Below are positions 1,304-62,089 of a DNA stretch of 64,000 nucleotides, in pieces. Both the position numbers and the translations under genes were made by a program. Each line of letters starts with the position of its first letter. Position 1 is the stretch's first letter. This DNA comes from an uncultured bacterium (GTDB lineage: Bacteria; Hydrothermota; Tepidihabitantia; Tepidihabitantales; DTDR01). Under the pieces are notes generated by a model. The model was given only the letters and a program-made list of their open reading frames with translations, ran no database searches and was not told the DNA's origin. The stretch is from positions 13,729-77,728 of the forward strand of contig CALHQW010000015.1 of the NCBI GenBank assembly GCA_938040315.1, read 5' to 3'.

Positions 1304-2757
1304 AAAAGTACTACTTTTTAATAATTTTTTTGTATCTCTTACCTATCTTTTACTTAACTTATTTTCCTTTTGTTGACCTACCTCAGCATTTGCATTTTGC
1401 CTATGTTTTAAAAAATTTTTCTAACTATGAGGCTTATTTTGAAAAGAGATTATTTCCTATGCATAATACTTTTCATCTTTTTTTTAATACTTTTTTATCA
1501 AATTTTTTGCCTTTAGATATCACTAATAGAATTTATATTGGATTAATTATTCTTTTAACTTTCCTTTCTTTTTATTATCTCTTAAAAGTAGTCAATGGTG
1601 AGAAATCCTTTTCTCTTTTGAGTTTATTAATTGCCTATAATTATAATCTTTTTTGGGGATTTATGGGAATTGCTTTTGCTTTTCCTTTAATTATTTTTCT
1701 TTTTGCCTTAACAATAAATTTATTAAAAGGAAACAAAAAAGAGAATTTAATTATTCTTTTCCTTACTCTTCTCTTTATCCTCATTTTTCTTTGCCATTCT
1801 TTAACTTTTATTTATTCTTTTGTTAGTTATTTAATAATTATTTTTTTAAATAAAAAATCTTTTAAACTTAAACATCTTTTACCACCTTTAATTACCTTGA
1901 TATTTTTCTTTCTTCCTTGGCAAGCGCAACAATTTCAAAGAGAAGGTAGTGAACTTATCAGCCAGTTTAAAGAAAATATCTCTTTCAAAGCAATTTACCA
2001 AAATATTTTAGATTTTTGGGAAAGATTAGGAATAAAAAGCGACAACTTGATAATTTTTTTCTTTAAAATAATAACTTTATTAGGAATATTTGTTTTAATT
2101 ACCGATCGCCATCTTTTTAAAGAAAGTAAAATATTATCCACAATCTTCTTGGTCACCTTGGCTTTTTATTTCTTTTTTCCAGGAAGTTATACAGAAGCAG
2201 TATTTTTAAATGAGCGATTTGCTCCTTTACTTTTTCTTTTTTTAATTGTTTATATAAGTTTAAAAATTAAAAAATCAATTGTAAAATATATAATTTTGGC
2301 AGTATTAATAATAAATATAATTGATTTAAATCTCCGATTCTTAATGTTTGAAAAATATGCTCAAGAGTTTAAAAAAATTGTAGATAAATTAGAACCAAAT
2401 AAAAAGGTTGTGGGAATTTTCTATGATAAAAGACCAAAACCCGATCTATTTGGTTACGATATTTTTCTCCACTTTCCTTGTTATTACCAGTTAAAAAAAG
2501 GAGGTCTTATCGGTTTTTCTTTTGCCTATATCCGTTATTCACCCTTAATATTTAAAGAAAATTATCCTTTAGAAAGGATTGATGAATGGTTCCCCTATCG
2601 TTCCCTTTTCCCTTATCGTTATAAAGATTACGATTATCTTTTTATTACTGGTGAAATCAGATTGAGTGATGAAAAATATTTCCGAAAAATGACTTTAATT
2701 GATAGTATTTCTTTCTTCCGAGTTTATTCGCCAAAAAAAGAGGTTTTTAATTTTTGA
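1300..2757 (+). CDS. hypothetical polytopic membrane protein (about 10 predicted TM helices plus C-terminal soluble domain)
   Basis: ATGA overlap with the upstream ORF. Highly hydrophobic N-terminal two-thirds (FLIIFLYLLPIFY..., LIILFLTLLFILIFLCHSL...). Family not recognised. Confidence 0.4.
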   Translation: MKKYYFLIIFLYLLPIFYLTYFPFVDLPQHLHFAYVLKNFSNYEAYFEKRLFPMHNTFHLFFNTFLSNFLPLDITNRIYIGLIILLTFLSFYYLLKVVNGEKSFSLLSLLIAYNYNLFWGFMGIAFAFPLIIFLFALTINLLKGNKKENLIILFLTLLFILIFLCHSLTFIYSFVSYLIIIFLNKKSFKLKHLLPPLITLIFFFLPWQAQQFQREGSELISQFKENISFKAIYQNILDFWERLGIKSDNLIIFFFKIITLLGIFVLITDRHLFKESKILSTIFLVTLAFYFFFPGSYTEAVFLNERFAPLLFLFLIVYISLKIKKSIVKYIILAVLIINIIDLNLRFLMFEKYAQEFKKIVDKLEPNKKVVGIFYDKRPKPDLFGYDIFLHFPCYYQLKKGGLIGFSFAYIRYSPLIFKENYPLERIDEWFPYRSLFPYRYKDYDYLFITGEIRLSDEKYFRKMTLIDSISFFRVYSPKKEVFNF

Positions 2758-4215
2758 TAAAATTTCTTGTAATTCTCTATCTTCTTCTAAATAGGGTATC
2801 TTCTCTTCAATAATTTTTACAATTTTTGGTTTTTCTTTAAAATTAAGTTCTGTTAATCTTAAAATTTGACTTATACATAAAATTTCTATTGCTAAAATCG
2901 TTTTAGTATTTTCAACAATTTTCTCTAATTTTAATAAACTATTCATCCCCATACTAACAATATCCTCCTGATTAGCCGAAGTGGGTAAAGAAGTCACTGA
3001 AGCCGGATAAGAAAGGATTTTATTTTCACTTGCTAAAGCAGTTGAAATAATTTGGGGCATCATTAAACCAGAGTTTATTCCTGGCTCTTTTATCAAAAAT
3101 ATTGGCAAATCCGGATGTCTTCCCGAAGTTAAATAAAAAATCTTTCTTTCTGATAATAGAGATAGTAGAGTAATTGAAATACCTAATAAATCTGCGGCTA
3201 ATGCTAAACTGGTACCCATAAAATTTCCTCCGCTAAAAATCTCATTATCAATAATAACTGGATTGTCCGTTATGGAATTGATTTCAATTTCTAATATTTT
3301 TTGTGCAAAATCAACGGTCTCACCTATTGAACCAAAAATTTGGGGCTGACATCTTATTGAATAAGGATCTTGTAAAGCAGTTTCCTTAAAATCACAAAGA
3401 TTTAAATAATCATAAATTATCTTCGCGGTTTCAATTTGATGAGAATAAGGTTTTAATTGATGTAACCTTATATCAAACTCTTTTTTGTTGCCTTTAATCA
3501 ATAAGGTTGTTAAACCAGAAATCTCTTTTGCCAAATTAAAGATATGTTCAATATCGATCAAAAGATAACCTAGAAAGGCCGACATCATTTCAGTGCCATT
3601 AATTAAAGATAATCCTTCTTTAATATCTAAAACAAAAGGTTTTAATTTTTCTTTTTTAAACACCTCTTTTGTAGGTAATATTTTATTCTTATAAAATACC
3701 TTTCCCTTTCCTAAAAGGACTAAACCAATTTGTGCCAATGGCGATAAATCACCGGAAGCACCTACCGAACCTTTTTTTTGGACACATGGAATAATATCTT
3801 TGTTGATTAAATTTAATAAGGCATCAATTAACTCTACTCTTACTCCGGAATATCCCTTACTAAGCATATTTGCTCTTAAAAAGATTGCCAAACGGATAAT
3901 ATCTTTATTAAAATATTCACCTTCTCCTAAAGCATGAGAGACAATTAAATTATATTGTAACTTTTTTATTTCTTCTTTTGAAATTCTTTTATTTACCAAG
4001 GCACCAAAACCAGTATTCACACCATAAACTAAATTTCCTTTCTCAATTATTCTTTCTAAACTATTCCGTGCTTTAGAAATTTTGCCTTTTTTCTTTTCGC
4101 TAATTTTGACAATACTTTTAGAAGACAAAAATTTTTTAATAAATTCTAAGTTTAAATTTTCAATAGGAATTTTAATAATCATCTTCACAAACAAAGTTAA
4201 TTTTTGGATTATCAA
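2695..4215 (-). CDS. hutH: aromatic amino acid ammonia-lyase family (histidine ammonia-lyase-like, MIO cofactor)
   Basis: Signature GSVGASGDLSPLA (the Ala-Ser-Gly triad that forms MIO). Length of about 500 aa with YGVNTGFG near the N-terminus. No hutU or hutI nearby, so substrate (His, Phe or Tyr) is unresolved. Confidence 0.75.
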   Translation of the reverse strand: MIIQKLTLFVKMIIKIPIENLNLEFIKKFLSSKSIVKISEKKKGKISKARNSLERIIEKGNLVYGVNTGFGALVNKRISKEEIKKLQYNLIVSHALGEGEYFNKDIIRLAIFLRANMLSKGYSGVRVELIDALLNLINKDIIPCVQKKGSVGASGDLSPLAQIGLVLLGKGKVFYKNKILPTKEVFKKEKLKPFVLDIKEGLSLINGTEMMSAFLGYLLIDIEHIFNLAKEISGLTTLLIKGNKKEFDIRLHQLKPYSHQIETAKIIYDYLNLCDFKETALQDPYSIRCQPQIFGSIGETVDFAQKILEIEINSITDNPVIIDNEIFSGGNFMGTSLALAADLLGISITLLSLLSERKIFYLTSGRHPDLPIFLIKEPGINSGLMMPQIISTALASENKILSYPASVTSLPTSANQEDIVSMGMNSLLKLEKIVENTKTILAIEILCISQILRLTELNFKEKPKIVKIIEEKIPYLEEDRELQEILSKIKNLFFWRINSEERNTIN

Positions 4216-7697: not shown

Positions 7698-8427
7698 GAG
7701 ACTTTTTATATTTCTTCTATTTTTTATTCTTAGTTGTACCAAAAGAAATATGGTAGAACTAAAAGAGAAAAATGTAGAAGAGTTATTTAAAACCGGACTT
7801 AAATTAATGAACGAAAGTAAATATGAGAGGGCAATAAAGTATTTTAATAAAATTGTTAACGAATACCCTCACTCTGGTTATCTTATTAAATCTCAGTTTC
7901 TTTTAGCCGAGTGTTATTTTCAAAAAAAGGATTATGAAAAGGCTAAATTGGAATACGAATTTTATATGAAAACTTTTCCTTATGCCGAAGATTACGAAAA
8001 TGCTTTTTACAAAAGTTTAATTTGCAATTTAAAGTTATTTAAAAAATCACAAAGAATCTCAATCTTAGAGGAATTGAAAGAAAATTTTTTAGCCTTTAAG
8101 AAAAGTTATCCCGAAGGGCAATTTTCTAAAGAAATCCAAAGTTATGTAAATACTATTGATTCCTTAATAGCCAAAAATTTTTTTGATATTGCCTTTTTAT
8201 ATTACAAAAATGGTGAGTTAAATCCAGCAAAAATCTATTTTGAATATGTAATAAATAATTTTCCTAATACTTCTTTTAAATTTCATTCTTTATATTATTT
8301 AGCCGAAATTTCTTATAAAAATAATGAGAGAGAAAAAGTAGAAAATTATCTAAAAGAGATTATTAAAGAAGGAAAGGATAATTTGAAATTGAAAGCCCAA
8401 AAATTATTAACAAAATGGAAAAAATAG
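7690..8427 (+). CDS. TPR-repeat lipoprotein, BamD/YfiO-like outer-membrane assembly factor
   Basis: Lipobox FFILSC. TPR-like helical repeats (AECYFQKKDYEKA...). Size and position are typical of BamD. Confidence 0.45.
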   Translation: MYKRLFIFLLFFILSCTKRNMVELKEKNVEELFKTGLKLMNESKYERAIKYFNKIVNEYPHSGYLIKSQFLLAECYFQKKDYEKAKLEYEFYMKTFPYAEDYENAFYKSLICNLKLFKKSQRISILEELKENFLAFKKSYPEGQFSKEIQSYVNTIDSLIAKNFFDIAFLYYKNGELNPAKIYFEYVINNFPNTSFKFHSLYYLAEISYKNNEREKVENYLKEIIKEGKDNLKLKAQKLLTKWKK

Positions 8428-23555: not shown

Positions 23556-24072
23556 AATTGCTGGAACAGGTGGACAAGGGATTATTTTTGCGGCGATTGT
23601 TTTAGCCGAGGCAGCGGGTATTTATGAAAATAAATACGTTACCCAAATTCAATCTTACGGTCCGGAAGCACGAGGAGGCGCCAGTAAAGCGGATATAATT
23701 ATTAGTGACCAACCTATCTATTTTCCCCAAACTCAAGAGTTAGATATTTTAGTTTGTCTCAGCCAACAATCCCTTGATGAATATGTTAAAAAATTAAAAG
23801 AGAAAGGTACCCTTTTTATTGATTCTTATTATTGTAAAAACTTCAATAAGGAGAAAATAAAAACCTACGCTTTTCCTTTTTCATTGGTTGCTAAAGAGAA
23901 ATTGGGAAGGGAATTATTTGCTAACATAATTCTTTTAGGCTCCCTTGCTCGTTTTACTAAAATTGTAAGTATTGAATCATTAAAAAAGGCAATCTCCCAC
24001 CGAGTGGCTCCCCAATTTTTAGCAATTAACGAAAAAGCACTAATGTTGGGTTATGAGATCGATCAATTATAA
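23539..24072 (+). CDS. korG: 2-oxoacid:ferredoxin oxidoreductase gamma subunit
   Basis: IRIAGTGGQGII...GPEARGGAS. Confidence 0.7.
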   Translation: MRKEIRIAGTGGQGIIFAAIVLAEAAGIYENKYVTQIQSYGPEARGGASKADIIISDQPIYFPQTQELDILVCLSQQSLDEYVKKLKEKGTLFIDSYYCKNFNKEKIKTYAFPFSLVAKEKLGRELFANIILLGSLARFTKIVSIESLKKAISHRVAPQFLAINEKALMLGYEIDQL

Positions 24073-24226
24073 AGTACCAAAACTGCTTCAAGAAATAAGA
24101 TTATTGCCTTTTTGATAAAAAAATTATAAAAGAAGCAATAAAAAGAATAAAGTTATAGAATAGAACTTTTATTAATTCTCTCTTTTTTTATTTTTTAAAT
24201 TCGATAATAAGGTATAAAAAAGACCA

Positions 24227-24312
24227 TATAGGAGAAGCGTTATAAGGTTATCCCTATACCCCCAAAAAATCTTTAATTTATAAAAACCAAGAAGCCTATA
24301 CCTCTCCCCTTA
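24227..24312 (+). ncRNA. conserved intergenic element, copy A (homologous to 59248-59337); function unknown, candidate structured RNA or regulatory module
   Basis: tataggagaagcgttataaggttatccctatacccccaaaaaatctttaatttataaaaaccaagaagcctatacctctcccctta. Two GC-rich blocks shared with copy B in the same order and spacing. Confidence 0.4.
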
Positions 24313-24336
24313 TTCCTCATAAAATACTATAAGTTA

Positions 24337-24365
24337 TTGACAATAATTATGTTTTATGGTATAAT
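24337..24365 (+). promoter_or_regulatory. consensus sigma70-type promoter TTGACA-17-TATAAT upstream of the ZIP transporter
   Basis: ttgacaataattatgttttatggtataat read directly, about 120 nt upstream of the 24488 start. Confidence 0.55.
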
Positions 24366-24487
24366 AAATTTTAAAATTTATATGGCAAAGGAGTTATTTA
24401 GAACCCTGATTCATTTTAAGGTAAGAGAATGTTTTGTAACACAATAGGAGAAAATACTAATGTTTAAGTTATTAAATTGATTAAATT

Positions 24488-54595: not shown

Positions 54596-56994
54596 AGAAA
54601 GTAAAAAATGATATTATTTATGTTAAAAAAAATGATAAAAGAAGGGAATTTTTTTCTTTTAACAAAATTTTACAAAGTATTTATAACGCTGCCTGTGAAG
54701 TAGGTCAATTTGAAAAAGAATCTTTTAAAAAATTAACTAAAGAAATTGTAAATTTATTAAAAGAAGAAAATATAAAAAATGGAATTGTTGATACCTCAAC
54801 AATCAGAGAGATAGTTAAGAGAGTTTTAAGTTATTATCATTATTTTGATGTATTAAACGCATATAACGAATTCTATAAACGAAAACTATTTTTAAAAGAA
54901 GCTACCCAAACTCATTTTTCTTTTATAAAGGAAGCAAAGGAATCAACGGATTTTGCTTTATTTGTGCAAACCTCACAAGAATTAATTGAGAAATGGGATA
55001 AAAATAAAATTGTGAAAGCTTTGATTCGAGAAACTTCTTTAGATGAAGAAAATGCTCAAGAAATTGCTTTAGAAATAGAAGAATTTATTAAAAAAGCTCA
55101 GCCTAAAATAATAACTACTAATTTAATTAGAGAATTAGTCAACGCCAAACTGATTGAAAAAGGATTATTTGAAGCAAGAAAAAAACATCAAAGATTAGGA
55201 ATTCCTTTATATGATGTAGAAAGGATTTTATTTTATCGGAACAAAGAAAATGCGAATACTCCTCATTGTCCAGAAGGAACTAATCTAACTTTAGCAGAAG
55301 CAATCAATAAACAATATGCTTTAGAAATGGTATATAGTCAAGACGTTGCTGAAGCCCACATTCGTGGTGATATTCATATTCATGATTTAGGATTCATTAA
55401 TCGACCCTATTGTTCTGGACAATCGGTAGAATATGTAAAGAAATATGGACTTTCTTTACCCGGCGCTTTATCAATTGCGAAACCTGCTAAACATCCAGAA
55501 ACTCTTTTAGCTCATATGGTGAAATTTTCTGCAGCATTACAAGGTCATTTTGCTGGTGCAATTGGTTGGGATGCGGTGAATATTTTTTTCGCTCCTTTCT
55601 TAGTAGGAATGTCTGAGAAAGATTTATATCAACTCGCTCAAATGCTTATCTTCGAATACTCTCAGCAAAATGTTGCCCGTGGTGGTCAAGCAATTTTTTC
55701 TGACTTAAATTTATATTGGGAAATCCCTAGGCATTTTGAAAATACACCTGCAATCGGACCGGGCGGCGAATACACCGGCAAGTCTTATAAAGAGTATTTA
55801 AAAGAAGCTCAAAAATTCTTAAAAGCCATTTTTTATGTTTATTTAGACGGCGATGGAAGTGGTAGACCGTTCTTTTTCCCAAAGCCTTTAGTTCACATCA
55901 CAGAAAGATTTTTTCAAACGGATGGTTATAAAGAATTTTTATTTTTGATTTCGGAAGTAGCTAGTGAAAAGGGAAATACCTATTTTGTTTTTGATCGAGG
56001 AGAAACTGCAAAAATTTCAGAATGTTGTCGGTTAGCTTTTAAATTAGATGAAAATGACTTAAAAGATGCCACTCAACCTTGGAAAATGCGTTATTGTGCT
56101 CTCCAAAATGTTACCTTAAATTTACCAAGAATAGCCTATCTTGCTAATCATAATGACGAGATACTTTTTAATAAAATAAAAGAATTCTTTGAATTTGCGA
56201 TCCGTGCTCATCTTCAAAAAAAGAAATTTTTAGAAAGTCTATTAAGATTGAAAGATGAGGGTCCTTTAGCTTTATTAGCAATGGAAAGAGACGGTGAACC
56301 TTATTTACGAATGCATCGAGTTACTTATCTTATTGGAATTTTAGGATTAAATGAAATGGTTCAATATCATTTGGGAAAAGAATTATCTGAGGACGATGAA
56401 GCTTTCAAGTTTGGATTAAAAGTAATTGCTTATCTTAAATTTCTATGTGATAAATATTCAAAAATTTTTAATATGCGTTTTGTTTTAGAACAAACACCAG
56501 CAGAAAGTTGCGCCTATCGTCTTGCTAAATTAGATATGGAATATTATCCGAATCAAACAAAAATGGTTGTTAAAGGCAGTATTACTAAAGATAGTGTTTA
56601 TTATACTAATTCCACTTATTTAAATATTAGTTTACCAATTCCTCCTTTTGAAAGAGTTTATAAAGAAGGTAAATTCCACGATTTGATTGAAGCCGGTGCT
56701 TTAACACATATTTGGTTAGCAGATGCTAAACCACCAAAAGAAAGTATTGCTAATTTTGTAACTAAAACTTTCTACCATACAAGAAATGCCCAAATTGCTT
56801 TTTCTCCAGAATTTACTACCTGTAATATCTGTCTAAAGATCAGCCGGGGTTTACGACATATCTGTCCTTATTGCCAATCAAAAAATGTTGACCATATAAC
56901 AAGAGTGACCGGTTATTTTTCTCGAGTTTCGGCTTGGAATAAAGGTAAAAAACAAGAGTTAAAAGATCGCTATAAAGGAATGGAAATTATTTAA
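54592..56994 (+). CDS. nrdD: anaerobic ribonucleoside-triphosphate reductase (class III, glycyl radical)
   Basis: N-terminal ATP-cone. C-terminal Zn ribbon CNICL...CPYCQS, then glycyl-radical loop RVTGYFSRV. ATGA overlap with nrdR. Confidence 0.85.
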   Translation: MKKVKNDIIYVKKNDKRREFFSFNKILQSIYNAACEVGQFEKESFKKLTKEIVNLLKEENIKNGIVDTSTIREIVKRVLSYYHYFDVLNAYNEFYKRKLFLKEATQTHFSFIKEAKESTDFALFVQTSQELIEKWDKNKIVKALIRETSLDEENAQEIALEIEEFIKKAQPKIITTNLIRELVNAKLIEKGLFEARKKHQRLGIPLYDVERILFYRNKENANTPHCPEGTNLTLAEAINKQYALEMVYSQDVAEAHIRGDIHIHDLGFINRPYCSGQSVEYVKKYGLSLPGALSIAKPAKHPETLLAHMVKFSAALQGHFAGAIGWDAVNIFFAPFLVGMSEKDLYQLAQMLIFEYSQQNVARGGQAIFSDLNLYWEIPRHFENTPAIGPGGEYTGKSYKEYLKEAQKFLKAIFYVYLDGDGSGRPFFFPKPLVHITERFFQTDGYKEFLFLISEVASEKGNTYFVFDRGETAKISECCRLAFKLDENDLKDATQPWKMRYCALQNVTLNLPRIAYLANHNDEILFNKIKEFFEFAIRAHLQKKKFLESLLRLKDEGPLALLAMERDGEPYLRMHRVTYLIGILGLNEMVQYHLGKELSEDDEAFKFGLKVIAYLKFLCDKYSKIFNMRFVLEQTPAESCAYRLAKLDMEYYPNQTKMVVKGSITKDSVYYTNSTYLNISLPIPPFERVYKEGKFHDLIEAGALTHIWLADAKPPKESIANFVTKTFYHTRNAQIAFSPEFTTCNICLKISRGLRHICPYCQSKNVDHITRVTGYFSRVSAWNKGKKQELKDRYKGMEII

Positions 56995-59083
56995 ATAATG
57001 AATAACGTAAAATAAAACCTAAAAAAACAATCGAAATCATTGACATTAATTTAATTAAAATATTAAGCGAAGGACCAGCGGCGTCCTTAAAAGGATCGCC
57101 AACAGTATCGCCCACTACTGCTGATTTATGAGCTTGCGAACCTTTACCCCCAAAATTCCCCTTTTCAATATATTTCTTTGCATTATCCCAAGAGGCACCG
57201 GCATTCGCCATCATTACGGCACACACAAACCCAGCAGTTAATGCACCTACTAAAAGGCCACAAACTCCTTCTACTCCTAAAAAAATACCGATAATAATTG
57301 GCACAATGATCGCTAATAAAGCTGGTAAAATCATCTCCTTTTGAGCTGCTTTTGTACAAATAGCAACTGCTTTTCCATAATCAGGCTTTGCTTTTCCTTC
57401 TAATAAACCCACTATTTCTCTAAATTGTCTCCTTACTTCTTCCACAATCTTTTGAGCTGCTCTACCCACTGCTTTCATAATCATAGAAGTAAAAGCAAAA
57501 GGAAGCATTGCACCAATAAATATTCCAACTATCAATCGAGGATTTAAAAGAAATAAATCCAATATTTTCTTACCATCACTTACAATTCTCACTTCATCCC
57601 GATAAGAAGCGATTAATGCTAAAGCAGTTAATGCTGCTGAACCAATAGCAAATCCTTTACCGGTTGCGGCAGTAGTATTTCCCAACGCATCTAATGCATC
57701 AGTTCTTTCTCTCACATAAGAGGGCTGATTAGACATCTCAGCATTTCCTCCAGCGTTATCTGCTACCGGACCATAAGCATCGCTGGCTAAAGTTATTCCT
57801 AAGGTAGAAAGCATACTAACTGCTGAAAGTCCAATTCCATAAAGCCCTAAAGAAAAATTATAAAAACCCCTACTCAAATAAAAACTACCGATTATTCCGC
57901 AAGCGATAATAATTACAATTGGTAAAGTAGATAACATTCCAACCGAAATACCTTCAATAATCACTGTGGCTGATGAAGTAGTAGCAGAGGATGCTAAACT
58001 TCTTGTGAAAGTATAAGCATCCGAAGTAAAAACTTCAGTAAAAAAACCAATCCCCACTCCTACTAATAAACCAATTAAAATTGCCCAATAGAGATATAAA
58101 TAATTATTGCCCAGAACTAATTTTACTAGAAAATAAGAAAATAAAGCTACTAAAAAAGTAGTCAAATAAATTCCTCTTCGCAAAGCAGCAAGTAAAACTT
58201 TTTGACTTGCTTTTTCTTCGGCTCTAACAACAAAATAACCAATAATTGAAGAAATGGTCCCAATACCTGCGATTACTAAGGGTAGCAGCACTCCATTTTC
58301 TTTTAATCCTGCAGACACTGAAAGTGCCATTGTTGCAACAATTGAACCTACGTAAGATTCATACAAATCAGCTCCCATACCAGCGATATCGCCTACGTTA
58401 TCACCCACATTATCGGCAATAACTGCCGGATTTCTTGGATCGTCTTCGGGAATTCCTACTTCTACCTTACCAACCAAATCAGCACCAACATCAGCTGCTT
58501 TAGTATAAATTCCTCCGCCCACTCTTGCAAATAATGCTTGCGATGAAGCACCGATACCAAATCCTAACATTGTAGAAGTAATCTTTTCCATTCGGGTAGC
58601 TACTTCTAACGATTGATAAAACTTAGAAAGAATAAAATACCAAATTGCTAAATCTAACAGAGCTAACCCCACTACTATTAAACCCATTACCATTCCAGCA
58701 GAAAAAGCAATTCTTAACCCGGAATTTAAAGATCTTTTACAAGCATTCGTCGTTCTTGCTGAAGAACGAACTCCGATAGACATTCCAATGAATCCAGATA
58801 AACCTGAGAAAAAACCACCGGTAATAAAAGCAAAAGGAACAAATATTGGTAACATTTTATTTAAAGCCAAATAAAGCAAAATGAAGAAAAGAAGTAAGAA
58901 ATAAAGACCAACAACCTGATATTGTCTTTTGAGATAAGCAGTTGCACCTTCTCTAACTGCTTCCGCAATTTTGCGCATTTCAGGTTCACCCTCACTTTCC
59001 TTAAAAATCTTAAAAATTAAAAAAATTGTAAATAAAATTGCGATAATTGAACTTAGGGGAGCAAAATAATACCAAACGTTCAT
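56987..59083 (-). CDS. hppA: membrane-integral H+/Na+-translocating pyrophosphatase
   Basis: GGGIYTKAADVGADLVGK, DNVGDNVGD, about 16 TM helices. 3' end overlaps the nrdD stop convergently. Confidence 0.85.
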   Translation of the reverse strand: MNVWYYFAPLSSIIAILFTIFLIFKIFKESEGEPEMRKIAEAVREGATAYLKRQYQVVGLYFLLLFFILLYLALNKMLPIFVPFAFITGGFFSGLSGFIGMSIGVRSSARTTNACKRSLNSGLRIAFSAGMVMGLIVVGLALLDLAIWYFILSKFYQSLEVATRMEKITSTMLGFGIGASSQALFARVGGGIYTKAADVGADLVGKVEVGIPEDDPRNPAVIADNVGDNVGDIAGMGADLYESYVGSIVATMALSVSAGLKENGVLLPLVIAGIGTISSIIGYFVVRAEEKASQKVLLAALRRGIYLTTFLVALFSYFLVKLVLGNNYLYLYWAILIGLLVGVGIGFFTEVFTSDAYTFTRSLASSATTSSATVIIEGISVGMLSTLPIVIIIACGIIGSFYLSRGFYNFSLGLYGIGLSAVSMLSTLGITLASDAYGPVADNAGGNAEMSNQPSYVRERTDALDALGNTTAATGKGFAIGSAALTALALIASYRDEVRIVSDGKKILDLFLLNPRLIVGIFIGAMLPFAFTSMIMKAVGRAAQKIVEEVRRQFREIVGLLEGKAKPDYGKAVAICTKAAQKEMILPALLAIIVPIIIGIFLGVEGVCGLLVGALTAGFVCAVMMANAGASWDNAKKYIEKGNFGGKGSQAHKSAVVGDTVGDPFKDAAGPSLNILIKLMSMISIVFLGFILRYSLFK

Positions 59084-59247
59084 AGTTTTTTATTATAATA
59101 AATTTTATTGAATTTTGCAAATAAATTTTTATAAATATTTTTACTTTATTACTTATTTTAAATTCTAGAAATTTGAAGAAGATTAAAGATACTTATTTCT
59201 CTTGATGATTCTTTTCTTTATAGTGAGAGAAAATAATTAAGAAACTG

Positions 59248-59337
59248 TATAGGAGACCGTTATAGGATTACCCCCCCCTATGACTAAAAATTTCCTTGAT
59301 TTATAAGAATTTATACTCATATACCCCTCCCCCTAGC
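59248..59337 (+). ncRNA. conserved intergenic element, copy B (homologous to 24227-24312)
   Basis: tataggagaccgttataggattaccccccccctatgactaaaaatttccttgatttataagaatttatactcatatacccctccccctagc. Confidence 0.4.
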
Positions 59338-59563
59338 AATTTTATTTTTTCTATTTTTAATTTTTAAAGTATCAAGGCCCTTCCAACGGTTTTAATTCCA
59401 CCAACTTTAAAAGGAGAAAAATTAGAGATTAAAATGGAAATATTAATCAAGATAGTAATTTGGATTTAATTTCTATCAGCGACCATAATTCTCCTTATAG
59501 GCACACCGATCAGTTGAAATAAGGATTTGGTTTGGCAATAGAAGAGAAAATTGGCAGGTTTAT

Positions 59564-59809
59564 ATGAAAAGTGATTCCAGCTATGATAGTATTGCTTACG
59601 ATGATGTGAATAATGATGGTATTATAGATTTAGGTTTTATTACCCCCCCCCAAGGTGGAATTGAAAATGGAATTTTTAATGATGAAAAAGATAGTTGGAA
59701 AAATTTTTTAAGCAATTTTACCACCTACTTGTTCTTACCAAAGGATATAACTTTTTTGATATGGATTTTGATCGCTTTATTGATGTTACCCAAGGAAAAG
59801 GTGTTTTAA
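59564..59809 (+). CDS. small hypothetical protein with a DxNxDGxxD calcium-binding-type loop and a C-terminal TM helix
   Basis: AYDDVNNDGIIDLGF (FG-GAP/EF-hand-like loop). C-terminal FLIWILIALLMLP. Possibly a gene remnant. Confidence 0.3.
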   Translation: MKSDSSYDSIAYDDVNNDGIIDLGFITPPQGGIENGIFNDEKDSWKNFLSNFTTYLFLPKDITFLIWILIALLMLPKEKVF

Positions 59810-59927
59810 AAATTTATTTAGGTAATGATAGGCGATTGACAAGATACGATAACAATTAAATAAGATTAAAAAACTTAAAAAGTAGTTAAATATTGATTTT
59901 TAAATAATTTATTTTTAAAATTATTTA

Positions 59928-61376
59928 ATGTATTATGAAGATTTTTTAAATATTTTAGGTAATTCTTTACAATTTGGTTTTATTTATTTTAATAAAGAGG
60001 GAATAATAAAATTTGTGAATAACCAATTTCTTTCTCTCTCTCAGTTATCAGAGGAAAATGTAATAAATAAAAATTGGTCAGAAATAATTGTTGAAGAAGA
60101 TAAAAGATGGGTAGAAGAGTATTTTCGAGAAAATCATAATCAAAATTTTTCTCTCGATTTTCGTATTAAAACAAATTATCTACCTATTCGCTGTTTCTTT
60201 TCACCCGTATTAAAAGAAAAAGAATTGTTAGGCTATGTGCTCACTTTTTTAAGTTTAGAAAAAGAGAAAGAATTAGAAAAAGAAGTGGCAATTTCAACAA
60301 ATATTTATCACGAAATTATGGAAAATGCTATTGATGGGATCTGTATATTAAAAGAAAAAAAAATTGTTCTTGCTAACCGTCGGTTAGAAGAATTAACTGG
60401 TTATTCAGAGGAAGAACTAAAAAAAATAAATTTTTTAGAATTAATTAGTTCTCAAGATAAAGACAAAATAATTTCAATAATTAATAAACCAGAAAATATT
60501 TTTTTACCTCTTCATTTTGGAGTAAAAATCATCCATAAAAATAAATTTGAAGTTGATACCGAATTGAGAATTGTTCCGGTTACAAAAAATGGTATTGATT
60601 CTTTAATTTTATTTTTCCGTGATATTACTCATTTAAAGGAATTAGAAAAATTAAAAACTGATTACTTTGCTATGGTTTCCCACGATTTAAGAACTCCTTT
60701 AACAACCATTAAAGAAGCTGTGACAATTATTAAAGAAATGACAAAAGATAAATTACCGAAAGAAGGGGAAAGATTTTTTAATATTATTTTAGAAGAGATA
60801 ATGCGCCTTTTTCATTTAATCGATAATTTAATTGAAGTTTCTCGTTTAGAAACTGGAAAAATAAGATTAAATTTTCAACTTATTGATATTCAACAGTTAA
60901 TTAACAAAATAATAGAACGTTTTAATATTCTTCTTCAAAAAAAGAATATTAAAATTGAAAAAAAATATCCTGCCTACCAAATAAAAGTAGAAGTTGACTT
61001 TGACCGTTTCTCTTCAGTAATTAGTAATCTTTTAGATAATGCTATCAAATATTCGCCAGAAAATGATAAAATAACATTTTTATTGCAAAGAATTGAACCC
61101 AATTCATCAATTTTAAAGGAAAAAAAGGTAAACTCTAATCTCTCTTATTTACTTATTGGAATTAATAATCGAGGACCAATTATTCCAAAAGAATATCAAG
61201 AAAAAATTTTTGAAAAATTTGAAAAGATTGAATTTAAACCAGGAGTTAAAGGAATTGGCTTAGGGTTAACAATTGTTAAAAATATTATCAAATTGCATAA
61301 AGGAGAAACCTGGGTAGAAAGTAATGAGGAAAAAGGAACAACTTTTTATATTTTGATACCATTAAATCAAAAATAA
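59928..61376 (+). CDS. cytoplasmic PAS-domain sensor histidine kinase
   Basis: Two PAS-like segments. HisKA AMVSHDLRTPLTTI. HATPase N-box/G-boxes (DNAIKYS, GIGLGLTIVKNIIKLHKG). Confidence 0.8.
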   Translation: MYYEDFLNILGNSLQFGFIYFNKEGIIKFVNNQFLSLSQLSEENVINKNWSEIIVEEDKRWVEEYFRENHNQNFSLDFRIKTNYLPIRCFFSPVLKEKELLGYVLTFLSLEKEKELEKEVAISTNIYHEIMENAIDGICILKEKKIVLANRRLEELTGYSEEELKKINFLELISSQDKDKIISIINKPENIFLPLHFGVKIIHKNKFEVDTELRIVPVTKNGIDSLILFFRDITHLKELEKLKTDYFAMVSHDLRTPLTTIKEAVTIIKEMTKDKLPKEGERFFNIILEEIMRLFHLIDNLIEVSRLETGKIRLNFQLIDIQQLINKIIERFNILLQKKNIKIEKKYPAYQIKVEVDFDRFSSVISNLLDNAIKYSPENDKITFLLQRIEPNSSILKEKKVNSNLSYLLIGINNRGPIIPKEYQEKIFEKFEKIEFKPGVKGIGLGLTIVKNIIKLHKGETWVESNEEKGTTFYILIPLNQK

Positions 61377-61386
61377 AATTAAAATT

Positions 61387-61785
61387 ATGGATGAGAAGAA
61401 ATATAAAATCTTATTGGTAGAAGATGAAGAAAATTTAAGAGAACTTTTAAGATATCAATTGGAAAGTGCTGGTTATCAAGTAGTTACTGCTAATGATGGT
61501 TTAGAAGCATTAAATCTTGCCCGGAAGCACAAAATTGATTTAATTATTTTAGATCTAATGCTGCCAAAACTTGATGGTTATACTGTCTGCCGGCTTTTAA
61601 AATTTAGTGAACAATATAAAAAAATTCCATTAATTATGGCAACTGCAAGAACAAATCCAGAAGATAAAGAAAGAGGATTAGAAATGGGGGCCGATTTTTA
61701 TTTAACAAAACCATTAAATAGTAAAGAACTTTTAGATAAAATTAAGGAACTTTTAAAACAAAAAGAAATTCCAAAAGAGACATAA
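61387..61785 (+). CDS. single-domain (CheY-like) response regulator
   Basis: ILLVEDEENLR, DLIILDLMLPKLDG (phospho-Asp), ATAR, K in YLTKP. No output domain. Confidence 0.8.
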   Translation: MDEKKYKILLVEDEENLRELLRYQLESAGYQVVTANDGLEALNLARKHKIDLIILDLMLPKLDGYTVCRLLKFSEQYKKIPLIMATARTNPEDKERGLEMGADFYLTKPLNSKELLDKIKELLKQKEIPKET

Positions 61786-62089
61786 TTTTTTGTTTTATTT
61801 TTTTTGTTTTGATTTACTCTTTTTCTCTTTTTATTCGATCTTTTATTTTCAATGCTTTTTCTATTTCTATATGAAAAAAGGTGAACTTAAGCAAAAATAA
61901 AATTTCTCTATCAAATTAAAAAAGCAACAGTAAAAAAGAGAGTCGGAATAAAAATTTGGACGGAAATAAAAATACAAAGAAGATATGATTTTTGGAATAT
62001 GAAAAGTAAGAAAAGAGAAAGAAGTAACTAAAGGAATTGTTGAAAGAAAAAAAGGATTTATTACAATTATCAAATAAAAAGGAGTTAGT

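Follow-up and report, generated by a model that had tools for sequence, protein, structure and literature searches.

A candidate low-copy, MITE-like dispersed repeat in one clade of candidate division WOR-3

Introduction

Prokaryotic MITEs are shorter than 500 bp, have terminal repeats of 4-30 bp and occupy AT-rich intergenic targets, often just 5' of genes; their direct repeats fade with age, and they disrupt genes in a strain-dependent manner (PMC10969869). Some of them carry IHF sites or promoters (PMC10969869, PMC2649163, PMC2229807). Among the described families, the Correia/CREE elements of Neisseria have terminal repeats of ~26 bp, a TA target duplication and more than 100 copies per genome, whereas the WOR-3 element described here has ends of ~7 nt, no visible target duplication, few copies and no promoter at its ends. 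The REP/BIME families differ from it in being GC-rich stem-loops with a GTAG head, served by RAYT transposases and present in hundreds of copies; a GC-rich palindrome of 20-40 nt, a GTAG head and a high copy number were sought in the sequence of the WOR-3 element and not found. RIP/BIME-1 consists of two inverted motifs around an IHF site. Multicopy families also exist among small RNAs, such as the csRNAs of streptococci and RsaE/RoxS, which carry C-rich or anti-Shine-Dalgarno motifs.

The window, by which we mean the whole 64-kb stretch of DNA analysed, has a G+C content of ~28% and holds two copies of a short element, designated A and B. The proteins encoded in their neighbourhood assign the window to candidate division WOR-3. 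We propose that they belong to an 85-bp family of low-copy, MITE-like dispersed repeats restricted to one WOR-3 clade, a tentative reading whose probability we place slightly below even. This most likely identity is of an ordinary kind, but the family itself would be new, and it would come from an uncultivated phylum.

Results

A discrete unit of nearly constant length

The two cores of the window are ~70% identical and represent two copies of one discrete unit (Table 1). A sequence-only reading of this DNA had already placed a two-copy element here, with copy B at 59248-59337; the shared blocks are indeed present, and the limits of copy B are now refined to 88 bp. Three blocks are common to both copies, namely a left one (TATAGGAGA..GTTATARG..CCC), a central one (ATTTATAA) and a C-rich right one (ATATACCYCTCCCCYTA). 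Composite patterns over the three blocks match copies A and B only in the 64 kb and gave no match in 100 shuffles, and no third copy was found in the window by an nhmmer profile or by short-word blastn. Core length is 85-86 bp in five of the six full copies known; the remaining one, copy B, is longer because of its C8 tract. The right limit of conservation is sharp, and the flanks of different copies are unrelated.

Table 1. Positions in the window of the two copies, their parts and the neighbouring features
Feature	Position	Strand	Remarks
Left copy of ~57-nt direct duplication	24014..24070	+	genuine por-gamma 3' end; score 34, 0/1000 shuffles
Lineage-specific insert, ~354 bp	24073..24426	+	between por-gamma and ZIP; core A in the middle
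Copy A of core repeat	24227..24312	+	86 bp; degraded, CCTCTCCCC where the consensus has CCCCCTCCCCC
Right copy of duplication	24428..24484	+	decayed por-gamma 3' end, directly 5' of the ZIP start codon
hppA, membrane pyrophosphatase	56987..59083	-	promoter TTGCAA-17-TATAAT at 59120-59092
Putative relic FG-GAP promoter, TTGAAT-16-TATAAA	59108..59135	+	homologous to TTGAAT-17-TATAAT of L046
Copy B of core repeat	59248..59335	+	plus strand defined as TATAGGAG...CTCCCCCTA
Left terminal block of copy B, TATAGGAGA	59248..59256	+	ATAGGAG against ATAGGGG at the right end, imperfect inverted, 6/7
Internal palindrome/hairpin of copy B	59259..59284	+	GTTATAGG-loop-CCTATGAC
Central conserved block, TTTCCTTGATTTATAAGAA	59291..59309	+	apex of central imperfect hairpin; most conserved block
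Right terminal C-rich block, CATATACCCCTCCCCCTA	59318..59335	+	rearrangement junctions recur at the right end
FG-GAP_3 pseudogene, secreted protein	59364..59832	+	tblastn, codon comparison and intact orthologues
PAS histidine kinase and response regulator	59928..61785	+	directly 3' of the FG-GAP gene in relatives

The ends of the element, T-ATAGGAG ... CCCCTAT, form short imperfect inverted repeats of ~7 nt. The left terminal block is invariant in five of the six copies; the exception is copy F, which reads TAAGAAG at its left end and whose right end has changed as well, to TAAGGGAG; we count the short inverted ends and this paired change in favour of a MITE-like repeat. TA stands at both ends of the core as part of the conserved sequence, and a target-site duplication around the core was seen at none of the six copies. 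The element has four ATAGG-like motifs, of which two are in direct and two in inverted orientation; they include a 6-4-6 palindrome. This palindrome is ATAGGG-N4-CCCTAT in the copies other than B, where the C8 tract (59271-59278) widens the loop and the half-sites are 10 nt apart instead of 4; ATAGGG-N4-CCCTAT occurs nowhere outside the element in ~350 kb of WOR-3 DNA (the window together with related loci that add up to ~290 kb). By our own reading, the reverse complement of the central block, AATCAAAGACTTA, fits the IHF consensus WATCAANNNNTTR in copies C, D and E; in copy B the fit is only partial. By our own count, the sense strand is rich in C and poor in G over the 3' 60 nt of the element.

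A unit of this size could conceivably be a gene for a small hydrophobic peptide, comparable to those of type I toxin-antitoxin systems, and a frame MVIGISLS..KSLIYK..YTPSPY is present in copies C and F and, truncated, in copy E, with a few synonymous-looking changes. However, the variable sites number 12, 10 and 13 at codon positions 1, 2 and 3 and thus show no periodicity, a start codon is missing from copy D, in copy E a stop interrupts the frame at codon 19 and the sequence beyond it is still conserved, the frames are broken in copies A and B, and nothing separates AGGAG from the ATG. The absence of codon periodicity led us to reject the peptide gene, which we regard as extremely improbable. 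Several other candidates were set aside as well. An internal promoter, TTGATT-16-TATATA, has a constant spacing that matches the constant length of the element, and its second hexamer is without the final T. A DnaA box, a CsoR-type operator, a G-quadruplex and attC were dropped for misfit to the consensus or want of conservation.

Copies in other WOR-3 genomes

Pattern scans of species-representative genomes and of metagenome contigs returned 36 loci, two of which (L010 from the genomes and L027 from the metagenome contigs) are true homologues and the rest chance matches; the copies in L086-L089 were reached by following the flanking genes of L027 into relatives. The six distinct full copies known are designated A to F. 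Copy C (L010 6198-6282, 85 bp) belongs to a WOR-3 MAG and lies between the genes for a Kelch protein and a secreted protein of no known kind. Copies D (L027 3690-3774, 85 bp), E (L086, L087 and L088, mutually identical) and F (L089 5199-5283, 85 bp, diverged) all occupy a DsbD_2/selD locus. The core is therefore found at four non-orthologous loci: por-gamma/ZIP (in the window and in L037), hppA/FG-GAP (in the window), Kelch/secreted protein, and DsbD_2/selD. Copies are few in the DNA compared: two lie in the 64-kb window, and four or more other genomes carry at least one apiece. That the element might be unique to its two loci in the window was also checked, and the homologous copies at further loci of other WOR-3 assemblies confirm the earlier suggestion of a genuine conserved unit.

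Pairwise core identity is 85% for C-D, 86% for C-E and 82% for D-E, so that D and E, which are orthologues, resemble each other (82%) no more than they resemble their paralogue C (85-86%). Copy F shares 66-71% with C, D and E, and copies A and B, at ~70%, are more decayed than C, D and E. A half copy, orthologous to copy A, lies at positions 1-50 of L037, a contig from a public-run assembly whose first base falls precisely at the element's midpoint. Such a break would be expected if the element were repeated in that genome or metagenome, and as assemblies do break at repeats, we count it in favour of a repeat.

The core is absent from ~245 kb of syntenic DNA of relatives, and partial core matches were found neither elsewhere in the window nor elsewhere in the compared loci. 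Searches of plasmid and phage collections by blastn gave chance matches only (E >= 0.2). No viral contig with the element was found; a scan for a C-rich 17-mer gave 35 loci and no carrier. About half of these 35 loci are one unrelated phage family, a viral contig family of ~60% G+C (L054, L058, L059, L062 and ~15 other loci) in which the position of the 17-mer TATACCCCCTCCCCCTA is conserved and the 17-mer follows a complementary G-rich stretch. The viral 17-mer may be one arm of a GC-rich hairpin, in a family unrelated to the WOR-3 element.

Copy B lies in the remains of a secreted-protein gene

In four related loci (L046 and L048-L050, with hppA 87-91% identical), hppA stands ~56 nt from a divergent and intact FG-GAP_3 gene of 545-549 aa, which is followed by the PAS kinase, the response regulator, an M6 peptidase and a short-chain dehydrogenase. 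In the window, the FG-GAP gene carries a stop codon, frame shifts and deletions. With the intact protein as query, tblastn aligns residues 14-63, interrupted by a stop, to 59364-59513, residues 66-105, in a different frame, to 59519-59638, residues 247-294 to 59579-59725, and residues 303-330 to 59752-59832, the remainder of the protein being missing. Since this gene is intact in relatives and decayed in the window, the small "Ca-loop ORF" of the sequence-only reading (59564-59809) is a fragment of a pseudogene and not a gene of its own. The 480-nt gap that had been described between hppA and this ORF does exist in the sequence, but it consists of FG-GAP pseudogene remains and is not a non-coding regulatory region. 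The same holds for two motifs within it, both present as reported: the aaaaggag at 59410 and the 11-codon ORF at 59435, which together span 59410-59470, lie inside the pseudogene, and the ctccttatagg at 59492-59502, taken for a second inverted motif, corresponds to S-P-Y codons, for which L046 has TCTCCTTATATC. The annotation upstream of the PAS kinase is accordingly corrected, from a Ca-loop ORF and a regulatory gap to a dead gene.

Copy B is absent from the orthologous sites of the four related loci. The divergent promoter region is conserved with respect to them up to ~59140, and the right flank of the core aligns to them again from FG-GAP codon ~3, with the junction at 59338-59341. Between the putative relic promoter and the core, a segment of ~105 nt (59141..59247) is also absent from relatives, and neither the FG-GAP 5' end nor the right flank resembles it significantly; this additional new DNA to the left of the core counts against the MITE-like reading. 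A long target duplication around copy B was not significant. Since copy B lies inside a wrecked secreted-protein gene, the locus looks like the site of a small insertion element and not like a dedicated regulatory region. The statement that the context is not that of an ordinary promoter holds insofar as the core itself is no ordinary sigma-70 promoter; the argument drawn from that context for an RNA-coding or regulatory region falls away. The relic FG-GAP promoter would transcribe core B in the C-rich sense, and then the pseudogene, towards the kinase gene. The kinase/regulator pair is probably still driven from this old promoter, through ~790 nt of debris that includes the repeat.

Three further features of this region were observed. 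Only two homopolymers of at least eight C or G occur in the 64 kb, the C8 of core B and a C9 at 59643-59651 in the pseudogene; they are on the same strand and within 380 nt of each other, and local slippage, mutational bias or an assembly artefact are possible explanations. The M6 peptidase gene, which in L046 and L048 encodes 541 aa with a type IX secretion sorting domain and lies between the response regulator and the dehydrogenase, is missing from the window, where 304 nt are left (61786-62089); it is the second secreted-protein gene lost at this locus. Lastly, hppA, the relatives' FG-GAP gene, selD and an SBBP-repeat gene near copy D all have their ATG 6-8 nt after a good -10 and no Shine-Dalgarno sequence (window 59092-59083, minus strand; L027 ~3639-3660; L046 9944-10000), which suggests that leaderless mRNAs may be common in the clade.

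Copy A and the separation of por-gamma from ZIP

At the second locus of the window, por-gamma and the ZIP transporter gene overlap by 4 nt (ATGA) in eight loci of five relative assemblies (L038-L045), one of which carries copy C at another site. An intergenic region between the two genes is found only in the window, where it measures 415 nt, and in L037. Because its last ~57 nt before ZIP are a duplicate of the por-gamma 3' end, the inserted DNA proper amounts to ~354 bp; the right copy of the duplication matches the por end of L042 with a score of 37 (0/1000 shuffles). A perfect TTGACA-17-TATAAT promoter lies at 24337-24365, 24 nt 3' of core A. Between the window and L037 this promoter is ~95% conserved and the half core present in L037 ~78%. 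Copy A has drifted from the family consensus, which its orthologue in L037 still keeps.

The new ZIP leader (24366-24487) is ~115 nt long. Within it lies an ORF of 21 codons that begins ATGGCAAAGGAG and is conserved in L037, where it reads ATGGTAAAGAG. The first 12 nt of this ORF resemble the start of selD, ATGGCAAAAGAG; similarity tests were not significant. In L043 (1-1885), genes for RAMP and CARF-domain proteins, which are type III CRISPR-associated, lie ~8 kb upstream of the por operon.

The promoter next to core A raises the question of a protein-binding regulatory module placed upstream of promoters, such as an ATAGG operator or activator array or a bending site for a nucleoid protein, or else of an insulator or a Rho-loading site between transcription units. 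Beyond the core, copies A, C, D and E each have a strong sigma-70-type promoter that points the same way; this promoter, the four ATAGG-like motifs with their 6-4-6 palindrome, the fit of the central block to the IHF consensus in C, D and E, and the C-rich, G-poor 3' 60 nt would all suit such a role. Nevertheless, the distance from core to -35 is 15, 15, 24, 40 or 49 nt, so that the geometry of core and promoter is not fixed. The downstream genes are unrelated (ZIP, a protein of no known kind, SBBP and selD), the palindrome is confined to the element in the ~350 kb considered above, and copy B has the wider half-site spacing and no good promoter downstream. Moreover, the orthologous genes of relatives manage without the element. 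We consider a binding module quite unlikely.

The DsbD_2/selD locus and the right end of the core

At the DsbD_2/selD locus, the core stands just after the DsbD_2-family gene in at least three genome lineages (L027; L086-L088; L089), and it has been kept in copies D, E and F while the flanks diverged. In L087 and L088 the selD promoter follows 49 nt after the core. In L027, a segment of 1.75 kb separates the core from the same selD promoter and is absent in L087 and L088; at most a few nt lie between the core's right end and this segment, which comprises its own promoter and the SBBP-repeat gene, with a type IX secretion sorting domain. An indel also lies directly after the core when the window is compared with L037. 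With copy B added to these two cases, junctions coincide with the core's right end at three loci.

The recurrence of junctions at one end would be explained if the core were an att-like site, at which site-specific or illegitimate recombination adds or removes segments at the C-rich right end. The three junctions (59338-59341, the L027 segment and the window/L037 indel) are consistent with this, as are the nature of the segments, often a promoter with a secreted-protein gene, and the right-side neighbours of B, C and D, which are secreted or type IX secretion cargo; the ~57-nt duplication of a gene 3' end around the insert at locus A is also of the kind that integrases leave. That duplication, however, excludes the core, and three junctions are a small sample in regions that are variable anyway. 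The gene tables of the loci show no recombinase or integrase gene adjoining any copy, the far end of the SBBP segment carries no second or partial core, and RYYYAAC and GTTRRRY are absent from the sequence. We therefore hold an att-like site to be distinctly unlikely. The retention of the core amid diverged flanks could reflect selection for a host function, not selfish persistence. Of equally low probability, in our estimation, is the more general proposition that the core is a functional module under selection, whether as a strand-specific structured RNA or as an att-like cassette site.

Other resemblances at this locus were pursued and rejected. The inserts at A or B as copies of the DsbD_2-selD intergenic region were suggested by a similar promoter and ATGGCAAARGAG; flank alignments and profile searches were not significant, and a comparison of the left flanks of B and E was borderline (2/300 shuffles) and was not confirmed by nhmmer. 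The selD gene beside the core (L087 ~7840-7930; L027 ~1881-1960, minus strand; L086) encodes an AIRS-domain protein. Its reading frame contains a TGA (..LCPG-TGA-..), after which comes a stretch able to form a hairpin, for which reason SelD is probably a selenocysteine-containing protein whose true start is missed by gene callers. The 5' end of selD in L089 looks decayed.

Folding of the two strands

The same conservation of the core at DsbD_2, where the flanks diverge, would also be expected of a gene for a structured small RNA of ~90-110 nt, transcribed from the minus (G-rich) strand and duplicated a few times. The minus strand can be folded into a three-way junction in which the ends are paired, with a central hairpin and an ATAGGG/CCCUAU hairpin, and the four-copy consensus fold reaches -14.2 kcal/mol on this strand against -4.1 kcal/mol on the plus strand; with six copies, the minus-strand consensus fold reaches -10.5 kcal/mol. 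The end-to-end helix contains 31 Watson-Crick pairs, 14 G-U pairs and 9 mismatches on the minus strand and 31, 5 and 18, respectively, on the plus strand, and copy F keeps this helix with a different sequence. By our own reading, a TANNNT hexamer stands 3-11 nt beyond the 5' end of the minus strand, on its upstream side, in six of seven copies.

On the other hand, single-sequence folds are no better than those of shuffled sequences (z 0 to -1.9), compensatory pairs number only one or two, the excess of G-U pairs comes from invariant positions, and the central hairpin has no strand preference. Most copies have no -35 and the promoter-like matches are weak, although TTTAAA-18-TAAAAT adjoins copy B; no intrinsic terminator follows the window copies on either strand. 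RNA genes, furthermore, are not usually found inside the first codons of other genes. With Rfam 15, searched on both strands, no match extended past the first five bases of copy A or B at E <= 10, and one tRNA only attained the gathering score in the window. A small RNA thus appears unlikely. The suggestion of the sequence-only reading that this is a regulatory or RNA-coding region fares poorly on the same points, namely the Rfam result, the scarcity of compensatory pairs and the missing terminator, and on the confinement of the palindrome to the element.

Discussion

We tentatively favour the reading of the element as a low-copy, MITE-like dispersed repeat, most likely non-autonomous. In its favour are the discrete non-coding unit with short inverted ends and inner palindromes and no counterpart in Rfam, the copies at non-orthologous AT-rich sites that are empty in relatives, the one copy that breaks into a coding sequence, the decay of older copies and the contig break in L037; these traits agree with published accounts of MITEs (PMC10969869, PMC2649163, PMC2229807). 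We propose the following course of events. On a few occasions, AT-rich non-coding DNA would have received a copy of the unit, presumably by transposition with an enzyme acting in trans. The copy at DsbD_2/selD would be old and common to several genome lineages, and both copies in the window would be additions specific to its own lineage. Copy B may have landed at codon ~3 of the FG-GAP secreted-protein gene, now a pseudogene, where it would probably be read through in the C-rich sense from the relic promoter and would contribute to a long leader for the kinase/regulator pair. At the other locus, the ZIP transporter gene would have lost its coupling to the por operon through the insert that contains copy A. 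The C-rich right end, finally, would behave as a breakpoint.

Several properties of MITEs can be compared with these observations. The element is small and non-coding, with 85-88 bp, no codon periodicity and no ORF common to all copies. Presence/absence polymorphism is evident in the empty sites of L038-L045 for copy A and of L046 and L048-L050 for copy B. Terminal inverted repeats are limited to ATAGGAG and ATAGGGG, which agree at six of seven positions, with the parallel change of both ends in copy F. No target-site duplication is seen at the core. The ~57-nt duplication at locus A surrounds the whole insert of ~354 bp, so that either at least two events took place or the core is only a part of what moved. 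No transposase with matching ends was seen in the window or in the compared loci. This, the short ends, the missing target-site duplication, the extra inserted DNA at both loci of the window and the very low copy number in the DNA compared count against a MITE in the strict sense.

If the main reading is true, candidate division WOR-3 here gains its first described family of small dispersed repeats. The element would mark recent rearrangements in these genomes, which are reduced and uncultivated, and would show both the splitting of an overlapping por-gamma/ZIP pair into two transcription units and the loss of a secreted-protein gene. Its broader interest would be limited unless the RNA or the recombination-site reading is true; in the latter case, it would represent a new cassette-exchange system for surface proteins, made of a promoter and type IX secretion cargo, in an uncultivated phylum.

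Among known systems, integron attC and other att sites offer a likeness in form, as imperfect palindromes of 57-141 bp placed after a stop codon in constant orientation, with junctions at one end. The WOR-3 element differs from attC in having neither RYYYAAC/GTTRRRY, nor an integrase nearby, nor a cassette array in which each cassette ends in a site. The csRNAs and RsaE-type RNAs resemble it in their ~90-100 nt, their few dispersed copies and a single-stranded CCUCC segment on the sense strand. These RNAs have their own conserved promoter, an intrinsic terminator and covariation, whereas in the WOR-3 element no promoter or terminator was found and it is the G-rich strand that folds better. The comparison with Correia/CREE is limited by a terminal repeat that is too short, by the lack of a demonstrable TA duplication and by the restriction of the IHF-like WATCAANNNNTTR to C, D and E. 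There is no sequence similarity to Correia elements, the blastn search of plasmids having given a chance 31-nt match to a record labelled Neisseria gonorrhoeae (E = 0.2). In its organisation, however, the element recalls Correia/CREE in many respects: both are small, non-coding and located in AT-rich intergenic DNA, with inverted ends beginning TATAG, both are often directly 5' of genes, lineage-dependent and able to disrupt coding sequence, and both have a central IHF-like motif and a possible hairpin fold (PMC10969869, PMC2649163, PMC2229807). With RIP/BIME-1 and ERIC it shares the form of an intergenic, imperfect palindrome of ~100 bp whose orthologous sites are filled or empty among related species (for ERIC, PMC10969869).
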